From NCBI GenBank assembly GCA_016198185.1, contig JACQJD010000046.1, positions 9,242 to 73,241 on the forward strand: DNA of 64,000 bases, read 5' to 3'. Each line of letters starts with the position of its first letter. Within the stretch, counting starts at the first letter, position 1. The DNA is from Deltaproteobacteria bacterium (GTDB lineage: Bacteria; Bdellovibrionota; JACOXK01; 2-02-FULL-40-11). The notes under the pieces are model-generated. The model was given only the letters and a program-made list of their open reading frames with translations, did no database searches and was not told the DNA's origin. This document shows, piece after piece, positions 14,942-33,473 of the stretch. The position numbers were made by a program, and so were the translations under genes.

Positions 14942-14953
14942 AACACCTCACTT

Positions 14954-16649: not shown

Positions 16650-16790
16650 TAACAGCAGCTTACCTTTATTTGAAAGTTAATAATTGATCGACCTCCATTA
16701 AACTCTCTTTAAGTCTTTTATAAGACGACGCAGAAAAAATAGCATGCCCTATTCTACCTCAATAATCGACAGCCTCAGGAATAGGTTGAT
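16650..16790 (-). pseudogene. 3' fragment of an ATP-grasp paralogue
   Basis: Shares the ...cctattct(a/g)cctc(a/g)ataatcgacagcctcaggaataggtt... segment with the 3' end of the 21174..22403 ATP-grasp gene. Confidence 0.4.
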
Positions 16791-16794
16791 GCGG

Positions 16795-16890
16795 GGCAGA
16801 CAGATCTGCTATGAATTATACCTTCAAGCTACTACAACACGTAAGGGCGGAAAATGGCGCCCTCAAATGATCAAAAGAATACTTGATCGA
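16795..16890 (+). pseudogene. Last about 30 codons of a serine-recombinase-like gene (copy 1 remnant)
   Basis: RQICYELYLQATTTRKGGKWRPQMIKRILDRP*, matching the C-terminus of the 35583..36023 ORF. Confidence 0.4.
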
Positions 16891-16935
16891 CCATGATCGA
16901 TCTGTTGATTTCAGCAAGAAAAACGCGATATTGTT

Positions 16936-17101
16936 TTATTGATGAAAACCAAAGAAGAAAAACGCCCCAAAGATATTGCGTATTTGGATACAAACGTTAT
17001 CAGTTTTTATTTTGACACAAGACCCGCGATTCAATTGATGCGCGATGCCACTCGTCAGTGGTGGGAAGAGAAAAGCAACGCTTATTATTTGTGTACTTCC
17101 T
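16936..17101 (+). pseudogene. PIN-domain gene with internal deletion (copy 1)
   Basis: MKTKEEKRPKDIAYLDTNVISFYFDTRPAIQLMRDATRQWWEEKSNAYY... aligns to the N-terminus of 36046..36576 but stops after about 55 codons. Confidence 0.5.
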
Positions 17102-17119
17102 ATGCTTAGGAGAATGCAC

Positions 17120-17384
17120 GATGAAGACAAAAATAAAACCAAAAAAATTGGTCATGGGAAGACATGAAAATCCAGTTGACTTCTTTAGACGTGTAAGAAT
17201 GGCCATTATGGAAGAGTTTGATAACGATATTTATAAATATGGCGCCTATTTAAGAGAAAGAGAAAAAGAGCACAAAGACCGGTTGGTGGATGTCGAAAAA
17301 CTACGAAAGCTTGGAATTATCTCAACTCAAATTTACACAATATATTTTACACCACCATCTTTTCAGCATACGTTTATTGTTTGA
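17120..17384 (+). CDS. Small conserved partner protein of the PIN module (copy 1)
   Basis: ...PVDFFRRVRMAIMEEFDNDIYKYGAYLREREKEHKDRLVDVEKLRKLGIIS is about 80% identical to 36573..36794. Confidence 0.5.
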
Positions 17385-20300
17385 ATTCTTCTTGGAAATA
17401 TTTGAGTTTACTAGGCCAGATATAAGAAGATTCATAGGTACATCTGATTGTACGCGTACCATAGGTATAGGTGCGTTTATATACTTTTTTTCTTGCATAA
17501 CCAAAGTAGCATTCGCCATCTGTGGGTGTATCTTGTATGCTGATGACTCCATGGAGGGAGACAGTGGCTGGAACCTGTATATATCCTTCTGTGGCGATCT
17601 GAAGAGACAGCGCTGGAATTCCAAATTGAGAAACATCTATGGTTTGATATTCATCTCCATCGTACAAATACTCTGCGTATTCATATGTGCCGCCGCCGGA
17701 GGGATAAGAGAGTGTTCCTTTACAGACGTTTCTTGCTTTTAAAATTTTTAATGGGTGTCTTTCCCATGCGTCACAATCTAAGCACTCATGCCCTCCACCC
17801 GGTAGAAACTTATAGGTAACTGCGGTTGGCAATGGAGGCACAGCTTTCTGGTCGTTGTCTTCATAAAAATATCCTCCTCCAGATTCAAATTCTGCGCTTG
17901 CATAGGTGCAGGAATTTTTAGGTGAAAATGTCACATTAAATGGATTTTGTATGAGCGACTGTGTAATTTCTTGATCGGGCTCGGGTTGAGAAGATGTGGG
18001 GGGGGCAACCGTTGTTTCTTCCTGTTCTTCTTCTGCAGGTGCCTCTTCTTTACACTTGATTTTTAAATTTTTGATAATTTCCTGCGTTTCATTTGCACTT
18101 TCCCATAATGCCTGTGCTTTTAGGACAGGCAGCTTGGAAACGGAAAAGGTAGATTCCGAAAGTTCGGTATTACAGTTTATCTGTGTTGCTGCAAGAGCTT
18201 GATCCAAATTTTTACGTGCTTCAATCAAAGCTTGTTGTAAGTTTTCTCCAAGTGTTTTTATGTTTTCTCTCATCTGAGATTCTGCCGCTTGATAATCCTT
18301 TACAGAGCTCTCAAAGTTTTTAAGAGCTGGTGCATCTTTGTTGGTGCAGCCCATTCGCGTGTAAGTTTCTATTTCAGCATCTTCTCTCTGTATTCTTTTA
18401 GAGCACGTATCTGCATCAAACATTTCAATACAGGCCGCTTTCACAGAATCGTGCGCCATGTCTACTTTGAATTCTTGCATTTTACATTCTGACTTAAATT
18501 TATCATATTCTGTTTGAGCCTGTTTGAGATCTTCTTCAAATCCAAAGGTAATTTCTTTTTCCTTCTCGATATCCGTTTCGTATTGGTGTTGAAGCGTTTT
18601 TACGAAGTTTTCATATTCTTGTTTGTGCGCCAGACGTATATCCACAGAAAATTCTCGTCTACGTTGTATAGCGCCTTCTACTTCTTTAATTTTTGGATCT
18701 ATTTCATTGAGTTTACGTTTGGTATACTCTCTGAGAAGTGTTGATTCAATAATTAAGGTGCGAAGTTCAGCAGCTTTCGAATTGGTTTTACTCAAATTCT
18801 TTTCGAACGCTTTGATCATCTGATCATGAATGTCATCTACCATATTTTGCAGGCTGCCTAATCCGAGACCCGCACCAATACCTCCTAATGTACTGATATG
18901 ACCTTGAGCTTGCACTTTTACTTTTGCTGCCTTTAAGACAGCAATAAGTTTTAGAATGCCACTTGCGGCTTTTGTCCCAAAGAGTTTGGCCCATTTATCA
19001 TGTGAAAAGTTCAACAATGCGACAGCTTGATCTATCATTTTAGAGATAAATATAGGTTTGGCGGCAGCTACAACTATTACAGCTTTTGTTGCTCCTTCGG
19101 CAACCAACATCGAAATTTTAGGCATAATCGCGGCCACTGTGATAATCGCACTGATAGCGGTAGTGGCAGTGGTTATCGCTAAATAGTTTGTATCTTCAAA
19201 GGTTGTTCCATTTTTTAACATCCTTTCTTCTTTTTCTTCTAAAGATTTGAGCTCAGGAATTGCTGATATAAGATCCATCGATAGGGAGTGGTATAAATTT
19301 ACAATTCTTGATCTTAGTTTTGTGAGAGCAGACAAATCTTTGTATAATGTACAAGCATGTTCATCATTTTTGAGGGCTACTGTTTCGCAAACCGAATTTT
19401 CCTTCATCAAGCGGCCTTGTTGAGAAAAAATTTCTTGCATGGCCGTATTAATCTCAACAATCGTGTCTTCTACAAAATTATTATCTGCGTTTGCCATGGC
19501 TTCCTTAAAGTTCGCAACGGCCGCTTCACTTCCTTTAATTTCACCCTCTTCCAATAAAATATTAATAATGTTATTTGCAGATTTTATTTGTTTTTCTGTA
19601 AGTTCTGCGTTTGTCCCCAGAATATTTTCTTGTGCATATGCTTTCGAAATAAAAGGGGTCTTTAAGAAACGGCCTGAAGTCTGACTTTCTAGGAATCTTA
19701 TATGAACAGTTGGGGTTAAAATTAATGCCCCCGCGTTTAGGGGATTCTGCTCTACATCTTTAATATAAAATATAATCTGAGGGTCGGCCTGGATTTCGAA
19801 GTCTGGATAAAAAATGGCCACTTGATCGATGATCATATCTGCTGTTTGAGCTGTGGTATTGGGTGGAAGATACACAGTTTTATAAATAGCTTTGTCATAG
19901 GTATTTAAATCGATATCAGGAAGATTTAAAAAAGAAGCCGCTTCATTTAGAGATATATTTTTAAGCCCCAGCTGACCTTGAAAATTTAAAACCAGAACTC
20001 TTTTTTTTGTTTTCTGAAGAGGTTGAATGACAATGGGAGGTTGGATGCCATTTTGGTTAGGCCACATTAAACTTTTAAACACCGCATCGTTTTTAAGATC
20101 TACAAAATATCGCCAATAATAGTAAAGATTGTCAATTTCTTGTGGTGTGAGTGTTTGGAAAAAATGGGGTTTTAAAATATTTAAATAATCTTTAAAATTA
20201 ATGACGCCATCAGCATTGCGATCCAAAATGCCTTGCTGTGTAGGTAAGTTTTTGGACACAGTTTCTAATGTATTTACTAGCTGTGTTTGTTCATCTTCAG

Positions 20301-20766
20301 AAAGAGGCGTAAAATTTTCTAGATTGTTTATATCTAAATCATTCATTTCTGAAATCTTCTTTTGAATATTTTCTGAAATATGTTTTTGAAAAAAGGAAGT
20401 TGTATCAAAAAAGGTTCCCACGGCCAGACCGTTTCCGAAAATTTTCTGAATCAAATATTCACGTTCAGGGGTTGTAAATGTTTCCCCTTTATCTGTTAAA
20501 TATTTATCGATGAGTATATTTGCTTGATCTCGTGTCAATGAATCGGTTTGGGATGGAAAGTACTTTTTAAGATCCTTAAAAGAGAGAGTTTGTATTTCTA
20601 TTATTGATTCTTGAAGTTTTTCCTGATCCAGTTCAGAGGGTACAATTTGTGTTTCTTGAGTGGGAGAAGTTTGTGTTACGGATGAGTCACCCCCTCCGCC
20701 TCCACCGCCGCCGCATGCAGTGATAAAGACACAGCCAGCCCCAATCAAAAAGGATTTTTTTAACAT
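17374..20766 (-). CDS. Large lipoprotein (about 1130 aa) with coiled-coil regions, a central hydrophobic helical hairpin and a Cys-rich C-terminal domain
   Basis: Lipobox ...LIGAGCVFITAC followed by a G8 linker. Hydrophobic hairpin 'ITTATTAISAIITVAAIMPKISMLVAEGATKAVIVVAAAKPIFI'. Long charged heptad-like stretches. The C-terminus has many Cys and GGG motifs. Confidence 0.6.
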   Translation of the reverse strand: MLKKSFLIGAGCVFITACGGGGGGGGDSSVTQTSPTQETQIVPSELDQEKLQESIIEIQTLSFKDLKKYFPSQTDSLTRDQANILIDKYLTDKGETFTTPEREYLIQKIFGNGLAVGTFFDTTSFFQKHISENIQKKISEMNDLDINNLENFTPLSEDEQTQLVNTLETVSKNLPTQQGILDRNADGVINFKDYLNILKPHFFQTLTPQEIDNLYYYWRYFVDLKNDAVFKSLMWPNQNGIQPPIVIQPLQKTKKRVLVLNFQGQLGLKNISLNEAASFLNLPDIDLNTYDKAIYKTVYLPPNTTAQTADMIIDQVAIFYPDFEIQADPQIIFYIKDVEQNPLNAGALILTPTVHIRFLESQTSGRFLKTPFISKAYAQENILGTNAELTEKQIKSANNIINILLEEGEIKGSEAAVANFKEAMANADNNFVEDTIVEINTAMQEIFSQQGRLMKENSVCETVALKNDEHACTLYKDLSALTKLRSRIVNLYHSLSMDLISAIPELKSLEEKEERMLKNGTTFEDTNYLAITTATTAISAIITVAAIMPKISMLVAEGATKAVIVVAAAKPIFISKMIDQAVALLNFSHDKWAKLFGTKAASGILKLIAVLKAAKVKVQAQGHISTLGGIGAGLGLGSLQNMVDDIHDQMIKAFEKNLSKTNSKAAELRTLIIESTLLREYTKRKLNEIDPKIKEVEGAIQRRREFSVDIRLAHKQEYENFVKTLQHQYETDIEKEKEITFGFEEDLKQAQTEYDKFKSECKMQEFKVDMAHDSVKAACIEMFDADTCSKRIQREDAEIETYTRMGCTNKDAPALKNFESSVKDYQAAESQMRENIKTLGENLQQALIEARKNLDQALAATQINCNTELSESTFSVSKLPVLKAQALWESANETQEIIKNLKIKCKEEAPAEEEQEETTVAPPTSSQPEPDQEITQSLIQNPFNVTFSPKNSCTYASAEFESGGGYFYEDNDQKAVPPLPTAVTYKFLPGGGHECLDCDAWERHPLKILKARNVCKGTLSYPSGGGTYEYAEYLYDGDEYQTIDVSQFGIPALSLQIATEGYIQVPATVSLHGVISIQDTPTDGECYFGYARKKVYKRTYTYGTRTIRCTYESSYIWPSKLKYFQEEFKQ

Positions 20767-21044
20767 ATTTTGAATCTTTTCAGTATACGTTCCGGTTTGC
20801 CATCCCCGCGAAGGGCGAGGATCTTTTGTTCTTTGTTTTAATTTTACCATAGATTTCGAAGAAGAAAGAGTGTTTTAAATTAAAATTGGATGAGAAAATT
20901 TTTGCAGTTTATCTCCTCCCTATTTAAGTATTTTTTCTAATTCTCGGCAGTCTATTTTACGGTTATTCGTGTAAGTCAAAATAAGATAGGCTTAGGGTAC
21001 ACATTCAAAGAACCCACAAAATCCATCGATTGGGATCATAAGCT

Positions 21045-21143
21045 GGCTTTGGTCAGGTGTTCGCGTAGCGCGCGGTGTGGCGGCCCAAGACGCGCGCTGG
21101 TCGAAATCTCTAAGGCCGTGTTAAATCTACGTTTTTTCTTCTC
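21045..21143 (+). repeat. Hairpin element C (type-1 left arm / core variant 'caaga' / type-2 right arm and tail)
   Basis: gctttggtcaggtgttcgcgtagcgcgc - ggtgtggcggcccaagacgcg - cgctggtcgaaatctctaaggccgtgttaaatctacgttttttcttctc. Confidence 0.7.
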
Positions 21144-21173
21144 GGCGCTCTAGATAACGCTGATCTACTGCAT

Positions 21174-22403
21174 TTATTTAAAAATTAAACAACGATCTGC
21201 TTGCATTAAATTATTTTTAAGTTTTTCATAGGATGATGCAGAAAAAATAGAATATCCTATTCTGCCTCGATAATCGACAGCCTCAGGAATAGGTTCATGG
21301 GGTGCAATATCGAGATGATATTCTTCGAGCCCTTCTAGTTTTTTTAAAGCATCTATCCCATGAACTGAGTTATAAGATCGAAGGCCGTCCCTGATAAAAT
21401 AAATAATACCCGCTGTTTTTTTAATTTTTGGCGGAGAATACTGCAAAACTGAGATTGGCATATTCAAATAATTCTGAATCATGATTTTTCTTAAATCTAT
21501 CTTTTTTGAGATATGAATAAGATCTATGATGTGATCACCCGCAAGACGCGCAGCAATTTCAATCAGAATAGGCTCTTCTTGATCGAGACGTATTTCCATG
21601 TGAAATGGCCCCAGATTTATCTTCATAACAGTTATAATTTTTTTAACATATTGAAAAATTTTATCTCGAACACGCTGATTGAGATGAGCCTCAACGATAT
21701 GCCCTCTTTCAACGAAATAGGGATGGGGCCCTAAAATTTTCTCCGTAACACTCACAATTTGTGCTTCACCATTCTCAACAAAGCCTTCAATGCTAAATTC
21801 CGGCCCTTCTATATATTGTTCAATAATAGCTGCCCTTTTCAGAGAATACCCACAAAGATAATCTTCCAATGAAAGCGCTGTTTTAAGCGATTTTGCTAAC
21901 TCCTTGGGATTGCTCGCAAGAGACACAGCAACGCTCCCGGCATAATTTACAGGCTTTATCACGCAAGGAAATCCTACTTTTTCAATAATAGCAGGTATTT
22001 CTGTGAAATGCTGTGCCACAAAGTAGCATATATTTTTTAAACCCGCTTCATCGAGTACCTTTCTCATTTCATTTTTAAGTTTTACAGTGGGCCAACAGTT
22101 TTGATGAAGTCCTGGTAAACCCAAATCTCTGTTGGCTTGATTCGCCAATAGAACAGACAATTCACCTCCAGGAAGAATGGTCTGCATTTTTAATTTCTTT
22201 TGGTATTTTTGTACCTGATCTAAAAAAATATTTTCTTGATTCGTTGGAAGGTCGATGACTTCACATTTTTCTTTTATACTTTCTGGTAATGGAAGATGAT
22301 TAGAAAGATTCTTCAGAATAACCACTTTATAACCCAGCTCAATAGCAGCAGTAACCAATCCCAGCCCTGACGAATAAGGCTCTATAATACCGATCGTTTT
22401 CAT
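21174..22403 (-). CDS. ATP-grasp domain ligase (locus 1)
   Basis: 409 aa with an ATP-grasp fold layout ('CVIKPVNYAGSVAVSLASN', 'EQYIEGPEFSIEGFV', 'MEIRLDQEEPILIEIAARLAGD'). Paralogue of 25510..26730. Confidence 0.65.
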   Translation of the reverse strand: MKTIGIIEPYSSGLGLVTAAIELGYKVVILKNLSNHLPLPESIKEKCEVIDLPTNQENIFLDQVQKYQKKLKMQTILPGGELSVLLANQANRDLGLPGLHQNCWPTVKLKNEMRKVLDEAGLKNICYFVAQHFTEIPAIIEKVGFPCVIKPVNYAGSVAVSLASNPKELAKSLKTALSLEDYLCGYSLKRAAIIEQYIEGPEFSIEGFVENGEAQIVSVTEKILGPHPYFVERGHIVEAHLNQRVRDKIFQYVKKIITVMKINLGPFHMEIRLDQEEPILIEIAARLAGDHIIDLIHISKKIDLRKIMIQNYLNMPISVLQYSPPKIKKTAGIIYFIRDGLRSYNSVHGIDALKKLEGLEEYHLDIAPHEPIPEAVDYRGRIGYSIFSASSYEKLKNNLMQADRCLIFK

Positions 22404-22981
22404 ACTTGAACCCCAGACTTCTTTCTAAAGTATTTGACCTCTCCAAAAATCGTCGCTGAGATTAAGAGCAAGCCTGATAAGATACAGACACTTCTCGGCT
22501 CTGGGTAAAGTCCCATTCCTTCCCCAACGGCACCCGTGGCCCAAAAAACACCTGAATGACGCGCCCGCTGCGTTGAATCTTTTAAAAAATCAGCTGCAAA
22601 ATAATAATAAGAAGGACCCGAAATAAATTCACCCAAACTCAATAAAATAACAGCAATAATGACTATCCGATAATCTGTCGCAAACCCGACTAAGAACATG
22701 CTGATCACAAATAAACTCATGCCAATTTTAATTTTAAGCCAGTGAGAACTTATTTTTTTGATCCGACCATTCAACAGAAGAAAACCCAATACAATTGTTC
22801 CAGCATTGAGAGCAACCCAGATATTACCTTCTGACTCAAATCTCAACTGACTGGAAATGGAGGGAATGCTTGAAAAAATCATCGTATAACAAGCCCAAAA
22901 TCCAGAGATAATTAAAAGATAAACAAGATCTGGATGAAGATGAAGGTTGAGAGTCGATAAGTGTACCACGTTGCTCCTCAC
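22400..22981 (-). pseudogene. MFS transporter C-terminal half (truncated paralogue of 26727..27863)
   Basis: 193 aa that align only with residues about 215-404 of the MFS protein at locus 2 (LSLGEFISGPS.. versus LSLGELILSPT..). No N-terminal half lies upstream. Confidence 0.5.
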
Positions 22982-23164
22982 ATTGAAGCAAAAAGAAACA
23001 AAGAACGATAATAAAATAATTCTTAAAATGAAAATTCATATAAACAACTCATTTTCAAGGGATATGAGCAATTATACCCTAAGCACAAAGAAAAAGAAAA
23101 GTTTTTTGTTTGTGTTTTTAATAATTTTTTAATCCATTTTTAATTTTCCTATTTAAAAAAATTC

Positions 23165-23215
23165 TGAAAAATTCTGGGGGGAAATTCTGGGGACACGATA
23201 CTTAATTCATCTTTG
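23165..23215 (-). repeat. Inverted copy of the 'gataagtattgtgtcccc(a/c)gaattt' repeat
   Basis: The reverse complement reads gatgaattaagtatcgtgtccccagaatttccccccagaattttt. Confidence 0.45.
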
Positions 23216-23334
23216 CTGAAATCGGGGGATTCCGATTACCGCGCTGTGTAATATGATGTGGCATCCCCTTTGCCACGACTCTTGGAATTCTTGCCATGCG
23301 TTTTTTTAATGCTAAAAAAGAGTGGGATTAAGAG

Positions 23335-23365
23335 ATAAGTATTGTGTCCCTCGAATTTTGCTGGC
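23335..23365 (+). repeat. Direct copy of the 'gagataagtattgtgtccc' repeat just downstream of AbiEii
   Basis: gagataagtattgtgtccctcgaatttt. Confidence 0.5.
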
Positions 23366-23372
23366 ATGCAAT

Positions 23373-24164
23373 TTATTCCAATCTGGAAATGAGCTGATCT
23401 TTAACGACTTGCACAGCCATTTTTGGATCATACTTGACAGAGGGTAAAATAAGGCCATCGATATCTTTTAGAAAATCTAAAGAATTCATTTTCTTGTCTA
23501 AGTTTTCGATAAAATCTTTTTGTGAAATCTTTACTTTTTGAAAATTTAAATATTTTTGAAATGCTAAATTAATTTTATCTGGCATTGCCTTTCCCATGGT
23601 TAATCCTGCCCATAAATCAAAAAGATCTCGCCCTTTTCTTCGTTGATAAAGCGCGCGTAATTTCGTTCCCAAAAGCTCCTCCAGTGAATAAGTCAAAACA
23701 TCAACCTTTCCTTGATACCAACGTGACTGAACACTCAAAGGATATTTCATAAATCCAAAAACCGAAAAATGTTCACGGCAATTCATTTCAATTTTAAGCC
23801 TCAGAGGCACAATTGGAGGTCCTTCTGAGTTAAAGCGATAAATCAAATTTACTGTTCCTTTTTTGTGATTTCTTTGAGGGGTTCCCAGCCATGGATCCAA
23901 TACCGCCCTTAAAGCAGTAAGCGGGAGACCAATGGGTTCTGATTTTATTTGAACAAGATCAATATCCTCGGAATAGCGTGCACTCTTTTTTAAATATAGC
24001 TTGGAAAGAGCAGTCCCTCCCCTAAAAGCAAATGTTTTTGAAAGTTCGGGATGTTTATAAATTTCAATTAAAGCTCGAGAAACAATTAAATCCTGTTCAA
24101 CCTGTGCATCGGATACCCAAGGTGTAAATTTTCGCCACTCTGTAATGAAATCTTTAGGAATCAT
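23373..24164 (-). CDS. AbiEii-like nucleotidyltransferase toxin (DUF1814)
   Basis: 'FAFRGGTALSKLYL...RYSEDIDLV' is a DUF1814 nucleotidyltransferase signature. Overlaps the upstream AbiEi gene by 4 bp. Confidence 0.75.
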   Translation of the reverse strand: MIPKDFITEWRKFTPWVSDAQVEQDLIVSRALIEIYKHPELSKTFAFRGGTALSKLYLKKSARYSEDIDLVQIKSEPIGLPLTALRAVLDPWLGTPQRNHKKGTVNLIYRFNSEGPPIVPLRLKIEMNCREHFSVFGFMKYPLSVQSRWYQGKVDVLTYSLEELLGTKLRALYQRRKGRDLFDLWAGLTMGKAMPDKINLAFQKYLNFQKVKISQKDFIENLDKKMNSLDFLKDIDGLILPSVKYDPKMAVQVVKDQLISRLE

Positions 24165-24967
24165 AGATCAGCCTCTATTTTCATATTTATCAGTATTTTC
24201 CATTTATCATTAGGCTTGGCCCCTTTTTTAGAAGCTGAAGGGACCAAGGGAACAAATGCTTTTACTCTCTTTTTTATGACATTAAAAAGGGGCAAGGCAA
24301 ACTTTTTTTTCTTTAAAATGGAATCGAATAAAAATCCCAGCCTTTGAAGAGAAGATAATTCTGACACAAACTGGGTGGCTAAAATCATTTTTTGTGCGTC
24401 CATTTTTTCTAGTAATTCATAAAGAATCGTTACAACATTATTGAGCCCCCCTACATATTGAGGATATGAGACAAGATCCAATGCGGTTGCCTCAGGAGAG
24501 GAAATCGCCACAAATCCACGAGGCGTTTTAATATCAAGTTTTGGAATATCTTTAACAAATTGTCTTGCAATGAAATGTATTAGAACTGATCCACATTTTA
24601 TTTTTTTTCTGTTTTTTGGAACAACTACTTGAAATTCTTGTGGCTTTTGATGACTCGCCCCATGAAACTGGGCCGCCGTTAATAATCCCACATAGTATGG
24701 CTGTTTGAGAAAATTCATTAAATCTGGAATGAATTGTTCTGGCGGGAGACACCCCAGGCTTTGATACTCCGGAGGTATAATGATATGAAATCCACGAACT
24801 GGAGAGACAATAAATCCTTTGGATTTGAAGCGACGAACAGATGCTCGAACGGCTACAGTACTCTTTTTTAAGGCTAAAACAGCATCTTTTGTCGTAAAAA
24901 AATACCTTCCCTCCGCCTGAAGTTTCCGAATCCATAAATCAAGGTTCTTTTTTAGCTTGGCAGTCAC
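24161..24967 (-). CDS. AbiEi-like antitoxin / transcriptional regulator
   Basis: The N-terminal part ('YFFTTKDAVLAL...') resembles the AbiEi winged-helix family. 268 aa; operonic with AbiEii. Confidence 0.7.
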   Translation of the reverse strand: MTAKLKKNLDLWIRKLQAEGRYFFTTKDAVLALKKSTVAVRASVRRFKSKGFIVSPVRGFHIIIPPEYQSLGCLPPEQFIPDLMNFLKQPYYVGLLTAAQFHGASHQKPQEFQVVVPKNRKKIKCGSVLIHFIARQFVKDIPKLDIKTPRGFVAISSPEATALDLVSYPQYVGGLNNVVTILYELLEKMDAQKMILATQFVSELSSLQRLGFLFDSILKKKKFALPLFNVIKKRVKAFVPLVPSASKKGAKPNDKWKILINMKIEADL

Positions 24968-25261
24968 TTTACAAAAGTAACACTTTTAGTTATCTTTGTA
25001 AAGTTTTAACCCACGATGGATAAACTGGCCTTACCCCAGTTTTGAGGTGAGAAGATAAGCAATAGGTTGCAATACGATGTAAAGCCATACGTACTGGAAA
25101 GTCTTTTCTGTAGCTTAACTCATGGCATAAAAATGAGGTTAAAATAAGTGAGTAAAATAAGAAGATTTTTTAGTAAAAACTCAGAATTATGTAGAGAAAA
25201 AATAGCCTCCCCCTTAAAGTTAATTTTTCATCTAAACCAAAAGAAGGAGGCAAAAATGACA

Positions 25262-25335
25262 GTTAGAGATAAGTATTGTGTCCCCCGAATTTCCCCCCCG
25301 AATTTTCCCGAATTTTCATCCCCCGAATTTCTTCA
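25262..25335 (+). repeat. Direct copy of the 'gagataagtattgtgtccc' repeat with a tandem (c)ccgaattt expansion
   Basis: gagataagtattgtgtcccccgaatttcccccccgaattttcccgaattttcatcccccgaattt. Confidence 0.5.
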
Positions 25336-25509
25336 GAAATCTCAGACCTCAAGATGTTGCAGCTGCTGCTGCTCTTCATTAAATCTTCATGATCAGTGTA
25401 ACTGCCTCTGAATCATGATAATGACTTTTTTGGCTATCTCTTTTTAACTCGCTTTTTCCAAAAAATTGATTAATAAGTTAGAGCTCATTAAGGAGGCCAC
25501 AAGACGATT

Positions 25510-26730
25510 GTGTTACTGGAACCCGGCTTTGGTGGCTTAGGGTACATCGAAGCTGTCAAAAAAAGAGGGCATGAACTTCTCGTATTGACACAACGAGAAG
25601 AAAATCCACAAGAACGAGGATATGCCCATCTTTTGACAGATAAAATCGTTGTAGACTTTGAAGATTTCAAAACCCTTGTCAACACACTCAAAGCTAATCA
25701 ACATTTTTCAAAAATTAAGGCCATTCTGCCAGCTATGGATGAAAATACGCACACCGCATCTCGCCTAGCGGGCTCTCTAGGTTTTCGTGCTGCTCCCTAT
25801 GAAGCAATTATGGCGGGGAGATACAAAGACATAGGCCGAAAAGTTTGCAAAGAAAAAAACATTCAAACACCTCAATCCATTAAAGTACGCACAGAAAAAG
25901 AAGCCCGTGCAGCAGCCCATGCGCTTGGCTATCCGGTTATTCTTAAACCTGCCGATGGCGCAGGAAGCGCACATGTGACATTGCATAACACTGAAACATC
26001 ATTGCTAGAAGAAGTTAACCTGCTTTCAACGGTGAAGACAAATTATGGGTATCCGGTGAATGGAGAATTTTTGATTGAGGAGTTTATAGACGGTCAGGAA
26101 TTTAGCGTGGAGATTTTTATGTGGGATTCACAGGTCAAATTTGCAAGCGTGACAGAAAAACACACCACACCGCCTCCGTGTTTTGTAGAGACGCTCCATG
26201 TTGTTCCAACGGCCCTTTTTAAAGAAGAGATTCCTGAAATCATTCATTTTGCTGTTTCCGCACTCACAGCTATTGGTTATTCGGATGGGCCTGCGCATGT
26301 TGAATTAAAATTGTCAACTTCCGGACACTATTTTCTCATTGAAATAAATCCGCGCATTGGGGGTGACATGATCTCTACTGATTTACTTCGAATTTCTTTT
26401 GGGATGAATATGCATGACGCCCATATCTGTTGGGCTCTGGAAGAGCCCTATCCATTTCCCTCTTCACAAGCACTCTGCGCAACGGCCATTTCTTTCTTAT
26501 TGGCACCCACAAAGGGGCGATTGCTAAAAGTAGCGGGATGGGAAAATCTCTCTCAACAGGCAGGCATGGTCAAACATGCTCTCTTTCATAAAATAGGTGA
26601 ATGCGTTTTTCCACCAACTGAAAATGCTGAACGATTAGGATACCTTATTTGCAAAGGGGACACACCTCACATTGCGAAAGAACATGTAAAGAGTGCACTC
26701 GAGAGCTTAAGCATAGAAATTTCTTCATGA
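25510..26730 (+). CDS. ATP-grasp domain ligase (locus 2)
   Basis: 'VILKPADGAGSAHVTL', 'EEFIDGQEFSVEIF' and 'HVELKLSTSGHYFLIEINPRIGGD' give the ATP-grasp (carboxylate-amine ligase-like) topology. Confidence 0.65.
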   Translation: MLLEPGFGGLGYIEAVKKRGHELLVLTQREENPQERGYAHLLTDKIVVDFEDFKTLVNTLKANQHFSKIKAILPAMDENTHTASRLAGSLGFRAAPYEAIMAGRYKDIGRKVCKEKNIQTPQSIKVRTEKEARAAAHALGYPVILKPADGAGSAHVTLHNTETSLLEEVNLLSTVKTNYGYPVNGEFLIEEFIDGQEFSVEIFMWDSQVKFASVTEKHTTPPPCFVETLHVVPTALFKEEIPEIIHFAVSALTAIGYSDGPAHVELKLSTSGHYFLIEINPRIGGDMISTDLLRISFGMNMHDAHICWALEEPYPFPSSQALCATAISFLLAPTKGRLLKVAGWENLSQQAGMVKHALFHKIGECVFPPTENAERLGYLICKGDTPHIAKEHVKSALESLSIEISS

Positions 26731-27863
26731 GAAAACCATCGCAATTAGCATTGATACTGCAATTTCTAGATAAACTTCTTTATTTTGCCATTGTTCCCAA
26801 CATTATCCTGCTCGTGCATCGTGCGGAGATGCTCAGCCTTTCAGATTTAGCCTTTTTCTTTGCCATTCATATTATTCCCTTAAGAGGCCTACCTGTCATC
26901 ATTGGATATTATGTAGATCGAGCCCATTTAAAACAGGCACTTTTGGGTGGATTTATATTACAAGCTTTCTTTATAATCTCGCTGTGTTTTGTATCACATC
27001 GTTGGTTATTTTTACTGTGCGGATTGGGCGCAGGGATGGGCGGTGGTATATTAGCGCCTGTTTTTAATAAAATTCTTGCAGATGGGCAACAACACCATGA
27101 AGAAAAACAAAATTTTCTATATCAATTTTTAGGAATTAATATTGCAGCTGCGGTGGCATCGCTTTTAGCATGGCCTTATCTTTCGCTGTATACACTTCTT
27201 TTTTTTATCCCCGCATGTGTCAGCCTGATCTTAATGGTAAAAAACTTAGATCCCATTACAAGAATGGCAGCTGATGAAGTTCATCCAAATTTTTTTAGAT
27301 CTTTAACTCACATTTTAAAACATGCCCCTGCGCTTAAAATATTAATTTTACTCTCATGCGAATGGGCCATGTATACAATGCTCATGAGTGGCATTCCTGC
27401 AATTGCGGTATCCATTAATGAAAAAATCAATGGCAATCTGTGGATAGGACTCAATGCCGTTACATGCATCCTGGGTTATTTTATTTTCATTCAAAAATTA
27501 AAAGACATGTCCAGAGATCACGTACGCTTGCAACAGGGAATGGTTCTATCCTCCATTGGCATGGTAATTATTGCCTGTGCACCTTCTTTGTTTTTTATTT
27601 TTTTGGCAGTGGTTGTATTTAGCTTAGGAGAATTGATTCTTTCCCCGACGGGAGCTCGCTCTTTAGCCAAGCTTGCTCATCCCAGTATGCGAGGTCAATA
27701 TGTCTCTTCGCTGCTGCTTGCGGGAAGTCTTGGAGAAGGTGGCGGTCAACTTTTTTTAAGCCTCTATCCTCACCCTAGAATGGTTTGCTTTATCGTAGGC
27801 ATCGTAAGTTTATTTTTCACCTGGTATTTGATGCACGCTACGCGAACACCACCAAATCCTTAG
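26727..27863 (+). CDS. MFS-type transporter
   Basis: Multiple TM helices; the start ATG overlaps the ATP-grasp stop (ATGA). The C-terminal codons are supplied by the right half of hairpin element F. Confidence 0.6.
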   Translation: MRKPSQLALILQFLDKLLYFAIVPNIILLVHRAEMLSLSDLAFFFAIHIIPLRGLPVIIGYYVDRAHLKQALLGGFILQAFFIISLCFVSHRWLFLLCGLGAGMGGGILAPVFNKILADGQQHHEEKQNFLYQFLGINIAAAVASLLAWPYLSLYTLLFFIPACVSLILMVKNLDPITRMAADEVHPNFFRSLTHILKHAPALKILILLSCEWAMYTMLMSGIPAIAVSINEKINGNLWIGLNAVTCILGYFIFIQKLKDMSRDHVRLQQGMVLSSIGMVIIACAPSLFFIFLAVVVFSLGELILSPTGARSLAKLAHPSMRGQYVSSLLLAGSLGEGGGQLFLSLYPHPRMVCFIVGIVSLFFTWYLMHATRTPPNP

Positions 27864-27912
27864 AAACATTGACTTTTTCTTTTCCACCCCTCTCGATGAT
27901 CTGGCTCTTTTG
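27834..27912 (+). repeat. Hairpin element F (right half only: type-1 arm and tail, fused to the MFS 3' end)
   Basis: cacgctacgcgaacaccaccaaatccttagaaacattgactttttcttttccacccctctcgatgatctggctcttttgg. The tail matches element E. Confidence 0.6.
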
Positions 27913-28024
27913 GACTTTTTCTTATCCTCCACGCGTCATCTTTGCTGAAATCGGGGGTTTATGACATACTAAATCAGTGATCAATGCTTCTATGCGTTTA
28001 TGAACAAAAAAATGAGAGGGTCAT

Positions 28025-29416
28025 TTGAAAAATAAAATTGTTGTGGTTCTTTCCATTTTTCTTCCCTTCGTTTTCTTCCTAGGTCATCTGCCAGAGTTAT
28101 CTATTCCTCTCGCATTTGCCAAAGAAAACCATTTTCTGATTTCCAAGGAAGAATTTCTCGCAAGTGATTTTTCGAAACATTTTAAAAAACGGGAATTCGG
28201 CAAAGCTCTAAATACTTTGGATAAGCTTATCAAAAAATATCCGAATGATCCGCTGATCCTGCGGTATCGCGCACTGACGCTCGACAGGCTGAGTCGTCGC
28301 AAGGAAGCCATCGCCGAATATAAGAAAATCCTTTCCAAAAATCCGAATCATGTTCCCACACGTCTTTTTTTAGGATTGGCTTATGCCCGCGACAAGCAGC
28401 CTGATCAGGCTGTCAAGGAGCTTCGCTGGGTGGTAAAACACAGCACATCAGAAAAATACCGCCATTGGGCCCAAGCACAGCTTACGCGTGTTAAGCGTGG
28501 CGGCAAGAAGGTGGAAAAACCCGTCAGAAAGAAACCTTATCTTCTAGGCAAGATCGGTGCCTATTATGACAGCAACCCTCTTCTTATTCCCAATGCAGAG
28601 AATCTTTCATCCCAGTCAAAAAAAGACGGCATGGATTTTCCGATTAATTTAAATGTTGGATATCCTTTGATACTCAAAAAAGAATTCCGGCTAGATGTGA
28701 TCTATGTAGGACAAACGCTCCTACATGATAAAGGGACAGATGATGTGGATTTTACGTCTCAAGGTGTCGCGCTAGATGCCAAAAAACGTGTGTTTTTTGG
28801 AGACCGCGCGGCTCTCATCGGCGGACGATATGATTTTAAGGCAAATTTTCTGAGGAGCGATCTCTTTGCTGTCATCAATCGCTTTCTTTTGAGCATGGAC
28901 ACTTCCTTTTGGAAAAAAACAAGAACAAGATTTTATGGGAGGTTGTCTTATTCCAATTATGGACCTGATGGCTCCAACCCACCGGTGACTTCGCGTGACG
29001 GCTTTCGCGAAGGCTTGGGAATCGTTCAAACATTTTTCCTCGCCAAAGACTTTAGAACGCATTTTTTCGCGAAACAGGAAATCAGTCTTGCCAATACACG
29101 GGGCGAGAATTTTAACCGTAAAGGGTCGCTCACCCGGCTTGGTATTCACGCGCCTTTGGATTTTCTTGGCCCGATAGACTTAGACGGCTCAACGGGATTC
29201 GACTATGGTACGTATCCTGAGTTTTCGTCTCTTTCGGTGTTGGATCTCAATGAACGTCGGGACATGCGTACGGACGCGTACACCGCGCTGACCTACCACT
29301 GGAAACCGAACTTTGCGACAAGAGGCCTTTACCGTTACATCAATTCTAACAATGATAACGATTTCTACGAGCGCGACCGGCATATTGCCGGTATGGAGGT
29401 TATATTCTCTCTATGA
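28025..29416 (+). CDS. TPR-repeat protein with signal peptide and a C-terminal beta-rich region
   Basis: N-terminal signal, then TPR-like repeats (ALNTLDKLIKKYPNDPLILRYRALTL... AIAEYKKILSKNPNHVPTRLFLGLAYAR). Confidence 0.45.
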   Translation: MKNKIVVVLSIFLPFVFFLGHLPELSIPLAFAKENHFLISKEEFLASDFSKHFKKREFGKALNTLDKLIKKYPNDPLILRYRALTLDRLSRRKEAIAEYKKILSKNPNHVPTRLFLGLAYARDKQPDQAVKELRWVVKHSTSEKYRHWAQAQLTRVKRGGKKVEKPVRKKPYLLGKIGAYYDSNPLLIPNAENLSSQSKKDGMDFPINLNVGYPLILKKEFRLDVIYVGQTLLHDKGTDDVDFTSQGVALDAKKRVFFGDRAALIGGRYDFKANFLRSDLFAVINRFLLSMDTSFWKKTRTRFYGRLSYSNYGPDGSNPPVTSRDGFREGLGIVQTFFLAKDFRTHFFAKQEISLANTRGENFNRKGSLTRLGIHAPLDFLGPIDLDGSTGFDYGTYPEFSSLSVLDLNERRDMRTDAYTALTYHWKPNFATRGLYRYINSNNDNDFYERDRHIAGMEVIFSL

Positions 29417-30189
29417 AAAACCGAATTTCAGTTTATTTCATCACATTTTTTTTTACTATCGGGCTAACATCATTAACTTTTGCCAATAATGTGGATCCAA
29501 GAGAAACGGCAATAGACTTGGCTGTCGGCGGAATGGAAGAAGGAAGTCGTCCTCTGTCATCTGAAAGCGGAGAAGATAAAATTCCAGGAGCCAATTTAAG
29601 TCCGGGCATGGACACGTCTGTGAAGGCTGTGGTCCCGGGACCAGGTGCTTCTGCCTTGGGTTCGGCGTCGGACACCGGTACGCCTGGCGGCGCGCCAGAA
29701 CAAGAGCCAGTCTCCGAACCCTCAGAATCAAGCGGAGCAAATTTGGATGATGTGACAAGTGGACTCGAAGCAGGCACAACCATTGAAACCGGCCCTTCGG
29801 ATGAAGGGGTTTCCGAGCCAACGGCTCCGGATAACGACAGAAGCATCATCGAGGCTGATGCCACCGTAGATACAACGGGCGGCACGCCCACAGTTGATAC
29901 TGATGTCTCGCTTGATACAAGCGCCGAAGGTGGTCTCATTGACGCCGATGCGGCCACAACCGCCGATATAGTTGACCAGGAGCTCACATCCGATGCGGGC
30001 GTACAGATTGATATGGGAGACAGCACCACCCTTTTGGAATCAACGCTTGGAAACGAGATCGGTACAAGCACCGCCCCCCCTGATGCTGAGGCTGACGCCG
30101 GCCTTGAAGCAGATGTCGAAGGCACGGGTTCTGGCGACGATGTGGCCGCAGATCCGGCTGACGGGCTCTCGGCTACGCCATCTCTTTAA
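29413..30189 (+). CDS. Acidic low-complexity secreted protein (D/T/G/S/E-rich), on a GC-richer patch
   Basis: Signal peptide MKNRISVYFITFFFTIGLTSLTFA; ATGA overlap with the TPR gene. Confidence 0.4.
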   Translation: MKNRISVYFITFFFTIGLTSLTFANNVDPRETAIDLAVGGMEEGSRPLSSESGEDKIPGANLSPGMDTSVKAVVPGPGASALGSASDTGTPGGAPEQEPVSEPSESSGANLDDVTSGLEAGTTIETGPSDEGVSEPTAPDNDRSIIEADATVDTTGGTPTVDTDVSLDTSAEGGLIDADAATTADIVDQELTSDAGVQIDMGDSTTLLESTLGNEIGTSTAPPDAEADAGLEADVEGTGSGDDVAADPADGLSATPSL

Positions 30190-31790: not shown

Positions 31791-32366
31791 ATGAAGAAAT
31801 CTATACCTAAAAAGCTTTTAAATAGGCCCTTCTTAGTGAAAGAGGCTTTGGCTTGTGGCTTAAGCAAGGTCTATCTTACTCGCATGGTCAAATCTGGAGC
31901 GCTGGAACGCCTAAGCCGGGGGGTTTATCAAGTGAGTGGAGTTGATCAAGGCACCCCTGAAGAACTTTATAGAGTTGCCACACTTCGGTGCGGAATGCCG
32001 TCAGCGATATGTCTTTTGTCAGCACTAGACTATTACCATGTGACAGATCAAATTCCTAAAAAGACATGGGTCCTTGTTCCTCAACGTAAACGTGTATCAT
32101 CAAAGGATTTAAAGCTTATTCGATCTCGTAATCCCCTATGGAAAATTGGGATTGTAAAAACAAAAGACTACTGGATTACAAACCTAGAGCGTACTCTTGT
32201 TGAGTGTCTGATATACAAGAGATGGATCGGCAGCCAAGTGGCACTTCTTGCACTGAAACAGGCACTATCAGAAAAAAAAGTGAAACTGAGCAATGTATAC
32301 GATGTGGCTAAAAAGATGGGTGTCCAACACAGAATTTATTCTTATATTGAGGTATTGACGTCATGA
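31791..32366 (+). CDS. AbiEi-like antitoxin (pair 2)
   Basis: 'FLVKEALACGLSKVYLTRMVKSGALERLSRGVY' winged-helix region; 4-bp overlap with the downstream DUF1814 gene. Confidence 0.65.
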   Translation: MKKSIPKKLLNRPFLVKEALACGLSKVYLTRMVKSGALERLSRGVYQVSGVDQGTPEELYRVATLRCGMPSAICLLSALDYYHVTDQIPKKTWVLVPQRKRVSSKDLKLIRSRNPLWKIGIVKTKDYWITNLERTLVECLIYKRWIGSQVALLALKQALSEKKVKLSNVYDVAKKMGVQHRIYSYIEVLTS

Positions 32367-33462: not shown

Positions 33463-33473
33463 GTAACCTATTG

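Follow-up and report, generated by a model that had tools for sequence, protein, structure and literature searches.

Intact and decayed L-amino-acid-ligase-type ATP-grasp cassettes in a mobile-element-scarred genomic island

The window analysed here is a 64,000-nucleotide stretch of DNA whose host is a 41% GC MAG labelled Deltaproteobacteria. Within it, the region from about 12.5 to 36.8 kb is a mobile-element-scarred genomic island that holds two ligase loci and a ligase stub, together with hairpin repeats, AbiE toxin-antitoxin modules, and deletion scars. Its pseudogenes and scars comprise a split AAA_14/DUF4143 ATPase, a recombinase fragment, a truncated PIN copy, half of an MFS transporter gene (MFS1), and the stub (AG3). 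The ATP-grasp and MFS genes described in the initial annotation (AG1, the MFS1 fragment, AG2, and MFS2) were all found as ORFs at the coordinates given there, and both gene junctions are indeed 4-bp ATGA overlaps, at 26727–26730 on the plus strand (AG2 stop, MFS2 start) and at 22403–22400 on the minus strand (MFS1 stop, AG1 start). The features considered below are as follows.

16666–16797, minus strand: AG3, 3' stub of an AG1-like ligase gene (last 43 codons and stop), a pseudogene fragment
16797–17330, plus strand: decayed second copy of the 35924–36781 segment, with the 3' end of a recombinase gene, an internally deleted PIN gene, and a small gene
21046–21143, plus strand: a hairpin-repeat copy made up of arm X, core, and arm Y'; it follows the stop codon of AG1 at a distance of 30 nt
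21174–22403, minus strand: AG1, an intact 409-aa ATP-grasp protein assigned to the L-amino-acid-ligase type (NCBI MBI4040953.1)
22400–22981, minus strand: MFS1 fragment, 5'-truncated, C-terminal six-helix half, of the same rare subfamily as MFS2
23158–23358, no strand assigned: mobile-element scar directly upstream of truncated MFS1, with inverted repeats, a transposase-like remnant, and a 22-nt repeat
23373–24967, minus strand: AbiE module between the ligase loci (AbiEii toxin 23373–24164, AbiEi antitoxin 24161–24967)
25252–25316, plus strand: third copy of the TAAGTATTGTGTCCCCCGAATTT repeat, within a 540-nt region upstream of AG2
25510–26730, plus strand: AG2, an intact 406-aa ATP-grasp protein assigned to the L-amino-acid-ligase type, leading the ligase-then-MFS module
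26727–27863, plus strand: MFS2, a full-length 378-aa MFS transporter (MBI4040958.1), translationally coupled to AG2
27830–27957, plus strand: half hairpin repeat (arm X' and right flank, 27830–27920), then the 22-nt repeat (27936–27957)

By sequence, AG1 and AG2 are both assigned to the L-amino-acid ligase (LAL) type, as had been suggested, and the predicted fold of AG2 supports the assignment. Both carry the Pfam domains ATP-grasp_4 (102.5 bits in AG1, 98.4 bits in AG2) and LAL_C2 (29.8 and 57.8 bits), and the best PDB sequence matches for both are BL00235 (3VOT), BacD, and RizA, with E values of 3.8e-28 (3VOT) and 2.5e-15 (BacD) for AG1 and 3e-23 (3VOT) for AG2. The AlphaFold model of AG2 (pLDDT 93.9) superimposes best on 3VOT with a TM score of 0.86, followed by RizA and YwfE. 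Both proteins keep their acidic Mg-binding residues and catalytic Arg, AG1 carrying the motifs H268-x-E270 and E282-x3-R286 and AG2 retaining H263, E265, E278, and R282; the E-x3-R motif is arranged as in LIESAAR of BacD and is equivalent to D301/R305 in LdmS. In a profile check, the scores of both ligases were far below the cut-offs of the Ddl, RimK, and PylC families, and AG1 and AG2 are not housekeeping ligases. A glutathione synthetase identity was also rejected.

The two ligases are only distantly related to each other, with 27% identity over 321 aa (E=9e-27). They fall in different LAL clades in the blastp matrix and in NJ trees built without bootstrap support, and each is nearer to proteins from other phyla (33–39% identity) than to the other; the relatives that outrank the AG1-AG2 likeness come from Actinomycetota, Betaproteobacteria, and unrelated metagenomes. 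The transporters, in contrast, fall in one subfamily by the same methods. This subfamily is represented by only six clusters at E<1e-30, query included, among 1.84 billion, so rare that the occurrence of two members 4 kb apart is not a coincidence.

AG2 and MFS2 form an intact operon with translational coupling, a member of a conserved, uncharacterised ligase-then-MFS module. The pair was recovered independently in Logan assemblies, on contigs of two sequencing runs. At all five genome loci retrieved with the MFS subfamily profile, an AG2-clade ligase (31–33% identity) ends at or overlaps the start of the MFS gene, so that ligase clade, transporter subfamily, and gene order are all shared with the window. 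These loci (L009–L013) come from Burkholderia sp. Nafp2/4-1b, B. multivorans WS-FJ9, Vogesella mureinivorans, V. aquatica, and an Oxalobacteraceae MAG; their transporters are 30–31% identical to MFS2 and 34–40% to the MFS1 fragment. Their hosts are high-GC Betaproteobacteria, whereas the window belongs to a 41% GC MAG. In two of the five, genes for a NifS/IscS-like class-V PLP enzyme and for a protein of ~345 aa, which gave no family match, are added upstream; the window has neither.

Given the pseudogenes and scars throughout the island, all three loci, AG2-MFS2 included, might be non-functional and simply cargo that is decaying in a dead mobile island. The start of AG2 is atypical, with a GTG codon 13 nt past a Shine-Dalgarno sequence and an N-terminus ~4–7 residues shorter than in relatives. 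The last 10 codons and the stop of MFS2 are derived from a half copy of the hairpin repeat (overlap 27830–27863), which leaves its C-terminal tail shorter than those of its relatives, and the G-P of the TM5 motif, retained in the five relatives, is missing from MFS2. However, AG1, AG2, and MFS2 are full-length, uninterrupted ORFs in which the examined invariant catalytic and family residues are all retained, and the AG2 model folds confidently. We therefore regard a wholly dead island as improbable.

At locus 1, the transporter gene is incomplete. The 193-aa ORF at 22400–22981 aligns only with residues 201–360 of MFS2 (34% identity, E=1e-27) and covers positions 203–346 of 347 in the Pfam MFS_1 profile, whereas full-length members of the subfamily are all 377–392 aa. 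It is therefore the C-terminal half of an MFS transporter, as initially described, and not an unrelated complete small transporter. A word-indexed search with the fragment returned no homologue besides itself, and it carries a 5-residue deletion within the GEGGGQ region that is invariant in the family. No remnant of the N-terminal half was found in any frame of 22982–23372 or elsewhere in the window.

The initial annotation explained the two loci as copies of one [ATP-grasp-MFS] unit in circularly permuted order. In this model, the unit passed through a circular or tandem intermediate during duplication and was opened again elsewhere, giving MFS(C-half)-ligase and ligase-MFS. The gene order is that expected from such a process, both transporters belong to one very rare subfamily, and both junctions have the ATGA overlap. 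The genes themselves point elsewhere. AG1 and AG2 belong to separate clades and are each nearer to foreign proteins, MFS1 is nearer to the Vogesella proteins (38–40%) than to MFS2 (34%), and an alignment of the loci revealed no nucleotide-level similarity, so that there are no duplication breakpoints to locate. Moreover, two genes have only one alternative order, so the swap carries no information, and a transporter-first order also occurs among AG2-clade relatives with unrelated transporters. The clade assignment, as far as it can be read from sequence, largely refutes the permutation model, to which we give very little credence.

The only recent duplication here, as the sequences suggest, is that between AG1 and the AG3 stub. 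The third ATP-grasp 3' fragment noted initially at 16650..16790 is real but slightly shifted, at 16666–16797, and it is a copy of AG1 rather than a further copy of a unit common to both loci. Its translation (16669–16797, minus strand) is 70% identical to residues 367–409 of AG1 (tblastn, E=5.5e-15), and at the DNA level 16665–16798 matches 21173–21306 with 81% identity. The E values for AG1 against AG2, for the MFS1 fragment against MFS2, and for AG3 against AG1 all lie far under what chance would give. An in-frame TGA replaces an Arg of AG1 (DY*GR vs DYRGR). The breakpoint that truncates AG3 is the left edge of the 16797–17330 segment, in which self-blastn matched 16797–17067 to 35924–36195 (89%) and 17187–17330 to 36639–36781 (83%). 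A recent AG1 paralogue (81% nt) was probably reduced to this stub by a deletion that joined what was left to the decayed recombinase/PIN module.

Locus 1 (22981–21174) is, in our reading of its sequence, more probably a mosaic remnant, since it joins half a transporter of the type that follows AG2-clade ligases to an AG1 from another ligase clade. The most economical history would be that a longer ancestral cluster, ligase-MFS1-AG1, lost its 5' part by a deletion that adjoins the transposase/repeat scar and the AbiE insertion. AG1-clade relatives sit in multi-ligase or diiron-oxidase clusters, among them ligase-ligase and ligase-MFS-ligase arrangements. In Streptosporangium sp. (L017), for example, AG1-clade ligases (33–36% identity) flank an MFS gene in the layout TauD - ligase - MFS - ligase - Lys/Orn oxygenase - cupin - DAO, showing that an MFS-then-ligase order arises naturally inside multi-ligase clusters. 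Unlike the window, that cluster has many tailoring enzymes, and its transporter lies outside the MFS1/MFS2 subfamily (no match at E<1e-3).

It should be noted that the 4-nt overlap of MFS1 and AG1 argues for an old, native transporter-then-AG1 junction and counts against a lost upstream ligase, of which no remnant was found in the window. Locus 1 could then be a native transporter-first operon whose first gene has lost its 5' half and which never had a third ligase upstream, with ligase-transporter pairs assembled repeatedly and independently in both orders. Among AG2-clade relatives, permease-then-ligase and MFS_3-then-ligase pairs do occur, their genes overlapping or abutting. Yet in every other locus found, the MFS1/MFS2 subfamily follows an AG2-clade ligase and never precedes a ligase, and it is not the partner of AG1-clade relatives. 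A native origin is thus possible but the less probable history, and we retain the mosaic remnant.

The scar next to MFS1 consists of 47-nt inverted repeats (23158–23204 and 23318–23358) enclosing a 22-codon remnant (23297–23232, minus strand) and the 22-nt repeat at 23207–23228, which occurs again at 27936–27957; 0 matches to the scar repeats are expected in shuffled sequence. The remnant, whose frame translates as MARIPRVVAKGMPHHITQRGNR, resembles the N-terminus of IS200/Y1-type transposases; the match, to an Iodobacter Y1_Tnp transposase, is weak (52% identity, E=2), and searches of Pfam and NCBIfam gave none. The neighbouring AbiE module was identified by Pfam (AbiEii 3.8e-31, AbiEi_1 2.1e-47) and by PADLOC (AbiEii 8.7e-104, AbiEi 9.9e-92) and is bracketed by 41-nt direct repeats at 23318–23358 and 25252–25292. 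The hairpin repeat downstream of AG1, assigned by comparison of family members and folding, is 98% identical to 33473–33570. The repeat pair at 27830–27957 is the right edge of the segment bearing both ligase loci.

The nearest relative of AG2, at 39% identity, has an APC-type amino-acid permease as its coupled partner, and permeases of this type usually import. MFS2 might likewise import an amino acid or a toxic analogue, which the ligase would conjugate for assimilation, storage, or detoxification. Such a role would fit the lack of biosynthetic tailoring genes around AG2, and metabolic rather than antibiotic roles are known for some LALs, LdmS among them (PMC9486568). Against import, the nearest named relatives of the transporters are drug/proton efflux pumps, MdtH for MFS2 (Pfam MFS_1, 59.5 bits; MdtH NCBIfam model, E=3.6e-9) and QepA and LmrA for the MFS1 fragment, all well below the model cut-offs, and the characterised LAL-MFS pairs are biosynthesis-plus-export systems. 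Import therefore appears unlikely.

A ligase plus an exporter had been recognised as the architecture of dipeptide-like cassettes, and precedents bear this out. In bacD-bacE and hilD-hilE (PMC3684760), a ligase is coupled to an MFS pump, as it is in tblF-tblR (PMC3927611). In the bacilysin system of Bacillus subtilis, a LAL-type ATP-grasp ligase (BacD, or YwfE) precedes the MFS exporter BacE in a ligate-then-export logic (PMC3684760), and AG2 resembles BacD in its modelled fold (TM 0.82 to 3WNZ/3VMM). BacD also shares the Mg-binding Glu and catalytic Arg motif (LIESAAR, compared with LIEIAAR in AG1). However, identity in the fold alignment is only ~17–19%, the scores of 49–68 bits compare with an 850-bit BacD equivalog cut-off, the window has no bacABC-type genes for a non-proteinogenic warhead, and its MFS proteins are of a different subfamily. 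The stand-alone LAL BL00235 of Bacillus licheniformis, the best sequence match of both ligases (E=3e-23 to 4e-28), shares the four-domain layout including LAL C-terminal domain 2, but at ~20% identity. To our knowledge, it has not been reported with a coupled exporter. Tabtoxin tblF-tblR and Pantoea hilD-hilE also close a small-peptide antimetabolite cluster with an ATP-grasp ligase and then a transporter (PMC3927611, PMC3684760), but within larger clusters that build an unusual amino acid, whereas the pair in the window stands alone.

By analogy with these systems, the pair probably makes a dipeptide-like compound in an ATP-dependent reaction and exports it. By homology to BacD, BL00235, and RizA, AG2 would bind ATP-Mg, phosphorylate the carboxylate of an amino acid or amino-acid-like acid to an acyl phosphate, and link this to a second amino acid through its amine. 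Ordinary amino acids of the cell are the probable substrates, since no tailoring genes are present in the window. The 12-helix MFS2 pump would then export the product, in the manner of BacE with bacilysin and TblR with tabtoxin. On balance, the island appears to hold three LAL cassettes at three stages of decay (AG2-MFS2 intact, locus 1 half-deleted, and AG3 a tiny stub), which we would sooner regard as a known kind of small-peptide cassette than as one unit copied in rotated order.

The window, which has a GC content of 41% and two tRNA genes, is part of a 73.4-kb MAG contig labelled "Deltaproteobacteria bacterium" at NCBI (locus-tag prefix HY390), and towards both ends it carries ordinary chromosomal genes, including those for a DEAD-box helicase, a pseudouridine synthase, a signal peptidase, and a sigma factor. 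Two loci pair an ATP-grasp ligase with an MFS transporter gene, and the coordinates of all four ORFs in the initial annotation were confirmed.

Genes of locus 1 (AG1 and MFS1) and locus 2 (AG2 and MFS2)
21174–22403, minus strand: AG1 ligase, 409 aa, MBI4040953.1
22400–22981, minus strand: MFS1 transporter fragment, 193-aa ORF
25510–26730, plus strand: AG2 ligase, 406 aa
26727–27863, plus strand: MFS2 transporter, 378 aa, MBI4040958.1

At both ligase/MFS junctions the genes share the 4-bp overlap described earlier, an ATGA stop/start, and the AG2–MFS2 sequence recurs without change in an assembly made independently from two sequencing runs. The annotated GTG start of AG2 (25489–25512 region) is located 13 nt 3' of AAGGAGG. 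The in-frame codons just upstream of it read H-K-T-I-V, comparable to the N-terminus M-K-T-I-G of AG1, and the relatives of AG2 are approximately 4–7 residues longer at the N-terminus; the start codon of AG2 may be shifted. A scan of 12–38 kb gave no Rfam match at E≤1 for a riboswitch or other RNA 5' of AG2, and a promoter/terminator scan was uninformative because promoter-like sites were fewer than in shuffled sequences. Also 5' of AG2 is an 87-aa ORF (25148–25411, plus strand) with a Cys-rich tail (SRCCSCCCSS...). That AG2 is a graspetide- or PGM1-like peptide ligase with this ORF as its precursor is unlikely, because the ORF is built on a repeat copy and a CTG/GCT run and the accession numbering leaves no NCBI protein at this position. 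The ORF is probably spurious.

[quoted passage not shown] Pfam ATP-grasp_4 matched AG1 at 102.5 bits and AG2 at 98.4 bits, and LAL_C2 (LAL C-terminal domain 2) matched AG2 at 57.8 bits and AG1 at 29.8 bits, barely over the 29.4 cut-off. The best phmmer match of both in the PDB was BL00235 (3VOT; E=3e-23 for AG2 and 3.8e-28 for AG1), and the other top matches were BacD/YwfE, RizA, and chain 30vh (annotated as an L-amino acid ligase), together with 4DIM, which was deposited as a phosphoribosylglycinamide synthetase. The AlphaFold model of AG2 (pLDDT 93.9) was best superimposed on 3VOT (TM 0.86), RizA, and YwfE. The motif set comprising the Mg-binding acidic residues and the catalytic arginine is present as H268, E270, E282, and R286 in AG1 and as H263, E265, E278, and R282 in AG2; in both, the arginine sits four residues past the second Mg-coordinating acidic residue, and the motif columns are invariant or nearly so in a 20-sequence alignment. 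The motif LIESAAR of BacD has the counterpart LIEIAAR in AG1, a LAL variant. What the corresponding residues do, and how the reaction proceeds through an acyl phosphate, has been described for LdmS and BacD, and only approximately 14 LALs had been characterized by 2022 (PMC9486568).

The HMM comparison that had been proposed for the two ATP-grasp proteins returned the LAL type, with the NCBIfam scores for Ddl (34–37 bits versus a cut-off of 246), the RimK family (30.5 versus 143), and PylC (22.5 versus 248) far below threshold, as were those for PurT, PurK, and biotin carboxylase against their curated cut-offs. The nearest characterized relatives of both proteins are LALs, not Ddl, GshB, RimK, PylC, PurK/PurT, or biotin carboxylase. 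Against the BacD and DdaF equivalogs (the NF053745/NF041595 pair), the ligases scored 68.1 and 48.6 bits for BacD (cut-off 850) and 58.3 and 34.5 bits for DdaF (cut-off 840), far too low for orthologues, and they are relatives only. Given these sub-cut-off scores, AG1 and AG2 are of the LAL type and orthologous to no characterized LAL. Both are near-orphans, with best non-self matches of 37–39% identity among 5.8 billion sequences, and neither the ligases nor MFS2 matched known anti-phage systems in PADLOC.

The initial annotation had interpreted the two loci as copies of one ATP-grasp–MFS unit duplicated in circularly permuted order, and this interpretation was not supported by comparison of the copies with each other and with their relatives. 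AG1 and AG2 are distant homologues (27% identity across 321 aa, E=9e-27), and in a blastp matrix and NJ trees, by which the clades were defined, they fall into separate clades. The neighbours of AG2 are two proteins of metagenomic origin (39% and 36%) and the ligases from Burkholderia, Vogesella, and an Oxalobacteraceae MAG (31–33%). AG1 has other neighbours (33–37%), encoded in a Streptosporangium genome and on genomic and metagenomic contigs of unidentified origin. Foreign clade members resemble each ligase more than the two resemble each other. Likewise, MFS1 is closer to Vogesella proteins (38–40%) than to MFS2 (34%). The nucleotide alignment of locus 1 with locus 2, suggested as a means of locating breakpoints, detected no DNA similarity between them. 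The sole recent duplication is that of AG1 and the stub AG3, the third ATP-grasp 3' fragment, which had been placed at 16650–16790 and is indeed present at 16669–16797 on the minus strand, where it matches AG1 residues 367–409 (70% aa identity, E=5.5e-15; 81% DNA identity over 134 nt) and carries TGA in place of the Arg in DYRGR of AG1. The clade assignments, together with the synteny in relatives, provide a simpler account in which a conserved module lies beside truncated remnants. As a lesson in method, a swapped gene order of distant paralogues is weak evidence of permutation.

MFS2 is a transporter of the major facilitator superfamily, with both six-helix halves; it is full-length relative to family members of 377–392 aa, retains the G-x3-D-R motif, and matches Pfam MFS_1 at 59.5 bits over profile positions 3–342. 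The MFS1 fragment aligns solely with MFS2 residues 201–360 (34% identity, E=1e-27) and with MFS_1 positions 203–346 (the last 144; 30.6 bits, below the 33.4 cut-off), and since the alignment is limited to this portion, MFS1 corresponds to the six C-terminal helices of a transporter. The ORF is thus an incomplete relative of the MFS2 type, the C-terminal half that had been proposed at the outset. No remnant of its N-terminal half or of an upstream ligase was found by tblastn of the whole window (E≤10) or by three-frame reading of 22380–23420. MFS1 carries the MFS-subfamily signature WACYTMIFSSIP and lacks five residues in the family-invariant GEGGGQ region, a deletion consistent with relaxed constraint.

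The two transporters belong to one very rare subfamily, as judged from an MFS2 search of 1.84 billion cluster representatives, in which only six proteins, the query included, were found at E<1e-30 and the MFS1 fragment scored E=4e-19 at half length. The subfamily was visible only in this exhaustive search with MFS2; in a word-indexed search, the MFS1 fragment retrieved no homologue but itself, and a scan of metagenome contigs with the subfamily profile gave zero matches. In genomes, the profile led to five loci, in Burkholderia sp. Nafp2/4-1b, B. multivorans WS-FJ9, Vogesella mureinivorans, V. aquatica, and the Oxalobacteraceae MAG. In all five, the gene for an AG2-clade ligase either ends where the MFS gene starts or overlaps that start, which makes locus 2 an intact representative of a conserved module with the order ligase, then MFS. 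The start of the sixth, metagenomic, MFS member is overlapped by 4 nt by the end of its upstream gene. When the module is defined as an AG2-clade ligase directly 5' of a subfamily MFS that it overlaps or abuts, locus 2 belongs to it and locus 1 does not, its ligase being of the other clade and 3' of the MFS. Two additional genes lie upstream of the module in the Burkholderia sp. locus (L009, 4543–6713) and the V. mureinivorans locus (L011, 4517–6705); one encodes a class-V PLP enzyme resembling NifS/IscS, the other a conserved product of approximately 345 aa with no PDB, Pfam, or NCBIfam match. These accessory genes, which are absent from the window, could possibly supply an unusual, perhaps sulfur-containing, substrate. 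The ligase of B. multivorans WS-FJ9 (L010, 6806–7998) aligns as two pieces in different frames (residues 1–271 and 277–405), pointing to either a frameshift or a misassembly.

The gene order of locus 1 has parallels among the relatives of its ligase. AG1-clade ligases occur after a heme-oxygenase-like (BesC-like) diiron oxidase, in tandem with a second ligase, and, in Streptosporangium, in the order TauD–ligase–MFS–ligase–oxygenases, clusters that are like small natural-product clusters. The ligase–MFS–ligase arrangement shows that an MFS-then-ligase order arises naturally within multi-ligase clusters; the same order is also found in AG2-clade relatives, with unrelated transporters. We prefer to interpret locus 1 as a mosaic remnant, in which a transporter of a type found elsewhere 3' of an AG2-clade ligase lies here 5' of AG1, a ligase of the other clade. 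It would have derived from an ancestral ligase–MFS1–AG1 cluster whose 5' portion was later lost, a history favoured because the MFS subfamily is exclusively tied to an upstream AG2-clade ligase. The main alternative, a native MFS1–AG1 operon in which the loss was confined to the 5' half of MFS1, is somewhat favoured by the ATGA overlap, and we consider it the less likely of the two. Neither history needs a circular intermediate. AG1 is intact but without the partner genes seen in its relatives; that the loci together are a fully inactive relic appears quite improbable.

The DNA around the loci is marked by scars and repeats. A 200-nt element (23158–23358) directly 5' of the truncated MFS1 contains 47-nt inverted repeats that enclose a remnant of 22 codons, MARIPRVVAKGMPHHITQRGNR. 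This remnant resembles the N-terminus of IS200/Y1-type transposases, a resemblance that is statistically unsupported (Iodobacter Y1_Tnp, 52% identity, E=2), and it has no Pfam or NCBIfam match. The TAAGTATTGTGTCCCCCGAATTT-type repeat occurs in three copies, within 23158–23358 and at 25252–25316, two of them inverted around the MARIPRVVAKGMPHHITQRGNR remnant and two direct around an AbiE module, which lies between 41-nt direct repeats of the 23158–23358 element. The module (23373–24967) comprises AbiEi followed by AbiEii with a 4-nt overlap and, by its matches in Pfam and in PADLOC (AbiEi 9.9e-92, AbiEii 8.7e-104), is a predicted AbiE type IV toxin–antitoxin/abortive-infection module. An exact 22-nt repeat, TCATCTTTGCTGAAATCGGGGG, lies beside the truncated MFS1 (23207–23228) and again just 3' of MFS2 (27936–27957). 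At 16797/16798, AG3 ends in a fusion with a decayed duplicate of the 35.9–36.8 kb segment (a recombinase 3' end, a PIN gene, and a small gene). The duplicate segments, 16797–17330 and 35924–36781, share 89% and 83% nt identity, and the PIN gene of the copy at 16.8 kb is internally deleted.

A hairpin repeat with six copies in the window, all between 12.5 and 35.7 kb, divides this island (about 12.5–36.8 kb) into segments.

Copies of the hairpin repeat (approximately 100–125 nt)
12547–12645, plus strand: hairpin repeat
14856–14949, plus strand: hairpin repeat
21046–21143, plus strand: hairpin repeat, bounding the segment with both ligase loci
27830–27920, plus strand: half copy, other bound of that segment
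33473–33570, plus strand: hairpin repeat
35560–35685, plus strand: hairpin repeat

One segment thus holds both ligase loci, and the half copy at its end supplies the final 10 codons and the stop of MFS2. The repeat has the core GCGCGC-GGTGTGGCGGCCCAGGAC-GCGCGC, which had no exact match in JGI metagenome contigs, and two alternative outer arms, found in the combinations X-core-X', X-core-Y', and Y-core-X', plus the half copy. The X–X' copies fold as hairpins (−27 to −32 kcal/mol), and the hybrid combinations look as if they arose by exchange within the core. REP elements are short GTAG-bearing palindromes with many intergenic copies genome-wide and an intact Y1 transposase gene (RAYT). The island repeat contains a GTAG...CTAC palindrome, its copies are confined to one region of the window, and the transposase-like remnant beside MFS1 is 22 codons long. 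Integron arrays consist of short single-gene cassettes in one orientation, with attC sites bearing R''/R' core sites (GTTRRRY) and an IntI tyrosine integrase. An integron cassette array was rejected here: no integrase domain was detected among the ORFs scanned, the GTTCGCG of the arms misfits GTTRRRY, and the segments are 2–7 kb long with genes on both strands.

The remaining gene content resembles that of a defence/toxin–antitoxin island. A second AbiEi/AbiEii pair, unrelated to the first, and a nucleotidyltransferase (PADLOC candidate system PDC-M05A, E=1.3e-50) are encoded at 31791–33220 and 34018–34671, and a BrnA/CopG-type antitoxin is also present; AbiE and the PDC-M05A-like nucleotidyltransferase were the only PADLOC matches. 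The closest AG2 relative is also near an AbiEii gene, but a mobile AbiE-plus-ligase unit was rejected because the AbiE proteins found there show no relationship to those of the window, and the proximity is regarded as a coincidence. AAA_14 ATPase and DUF4143 domains, usually found in one protein, lie on adjacent minus-strand ORFs (14954–15511 and 15536–16123) 24 nt apart, and 14954–16123 is therefore probably a disrupted gene. The product of 28025–29416 has an N-terminal TPR region matching the TPR family of Slam (surface lipoprotein assembly modifier) and a long C-terminal part without matches. Its gene overlaps by 4 nt the start of another (29413–30189; 54% GC versus 41% for the window), whose 258-aa product is acidic, of low complexity, and hydrophobic at the N-terminus, and the two may encode a Slam-like translocator and its substrate. 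A 1158-aa ORF (17374–20850, minus strand) has a hydrophobic N-terminus followed by poly-glycine and long charged, apparently helical regions. It had no Pfam or PADLOC match and a weak, sub-cut-off NCBIfam match to a fusolisin N-terminus, and its exact sequence was absent from the protein collection searched.

By homology, AG2 with ATP-Mg would phosphorylate the carboxylate of one amino acid and couple the activated carboxylate to the amine of a second, and the product would be exported by MFS2. We infer such a pairing of ligation with export from sequence and from analogy to known systems. The ligate-then-export logic is like that of bacD–bacE and of hilD–hilE, itself a prediction (PMC3684760), and of tblF–tblR (PMC3927611), and the nearest named relatives of MFS2 are drug/proton efflux pumps such as MdtH, with scores well under cut-off. 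Of the LAL-plus-exporter cassette proposed in the initial annotation, the ligase family assignment was retained and the circular permutation was not, with export being a role suggested by homology. Since an APC permease is the partner of the ligase most closely related to AG2, uptake plus conjugation instead of export is a rival role for the pair, though an unlikely one.

Export from the AG2–MFS2 pair is also assumed in a broader and highly speculative proposal, to which we give little credence, that an AG2-type ligase with the rare MFS forms a minimal horizontally mobile two-gene cassette, common to Betaproteobacteria and this lineage, that makes and secretes a dipeptide-like signal or antimetabolite, and that such cassettes are gained, shuffled, and eroded through recombination at the hairpin repeats of the island. 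If this were true, the hairpin repeat would represent a cassette-exchange system unrelated to integrons, acting by site-specific exchange in a common core. The main outputs of the analysis are a defined conserved ligase–MFS module and the hairpin-repeat architecture of the island. LALs are of interest both for making antimetabolite dipeptides and as biocatalysts, and AG2–MFS2 with its Burkholderia and Vogesella counterparts defines a compact, previously unstudied two-gene module that is directly expressible, while the hybrid-armed hairpin repeats may be of wider interest for the shuffling of small cassettes in uncultured bacteria.
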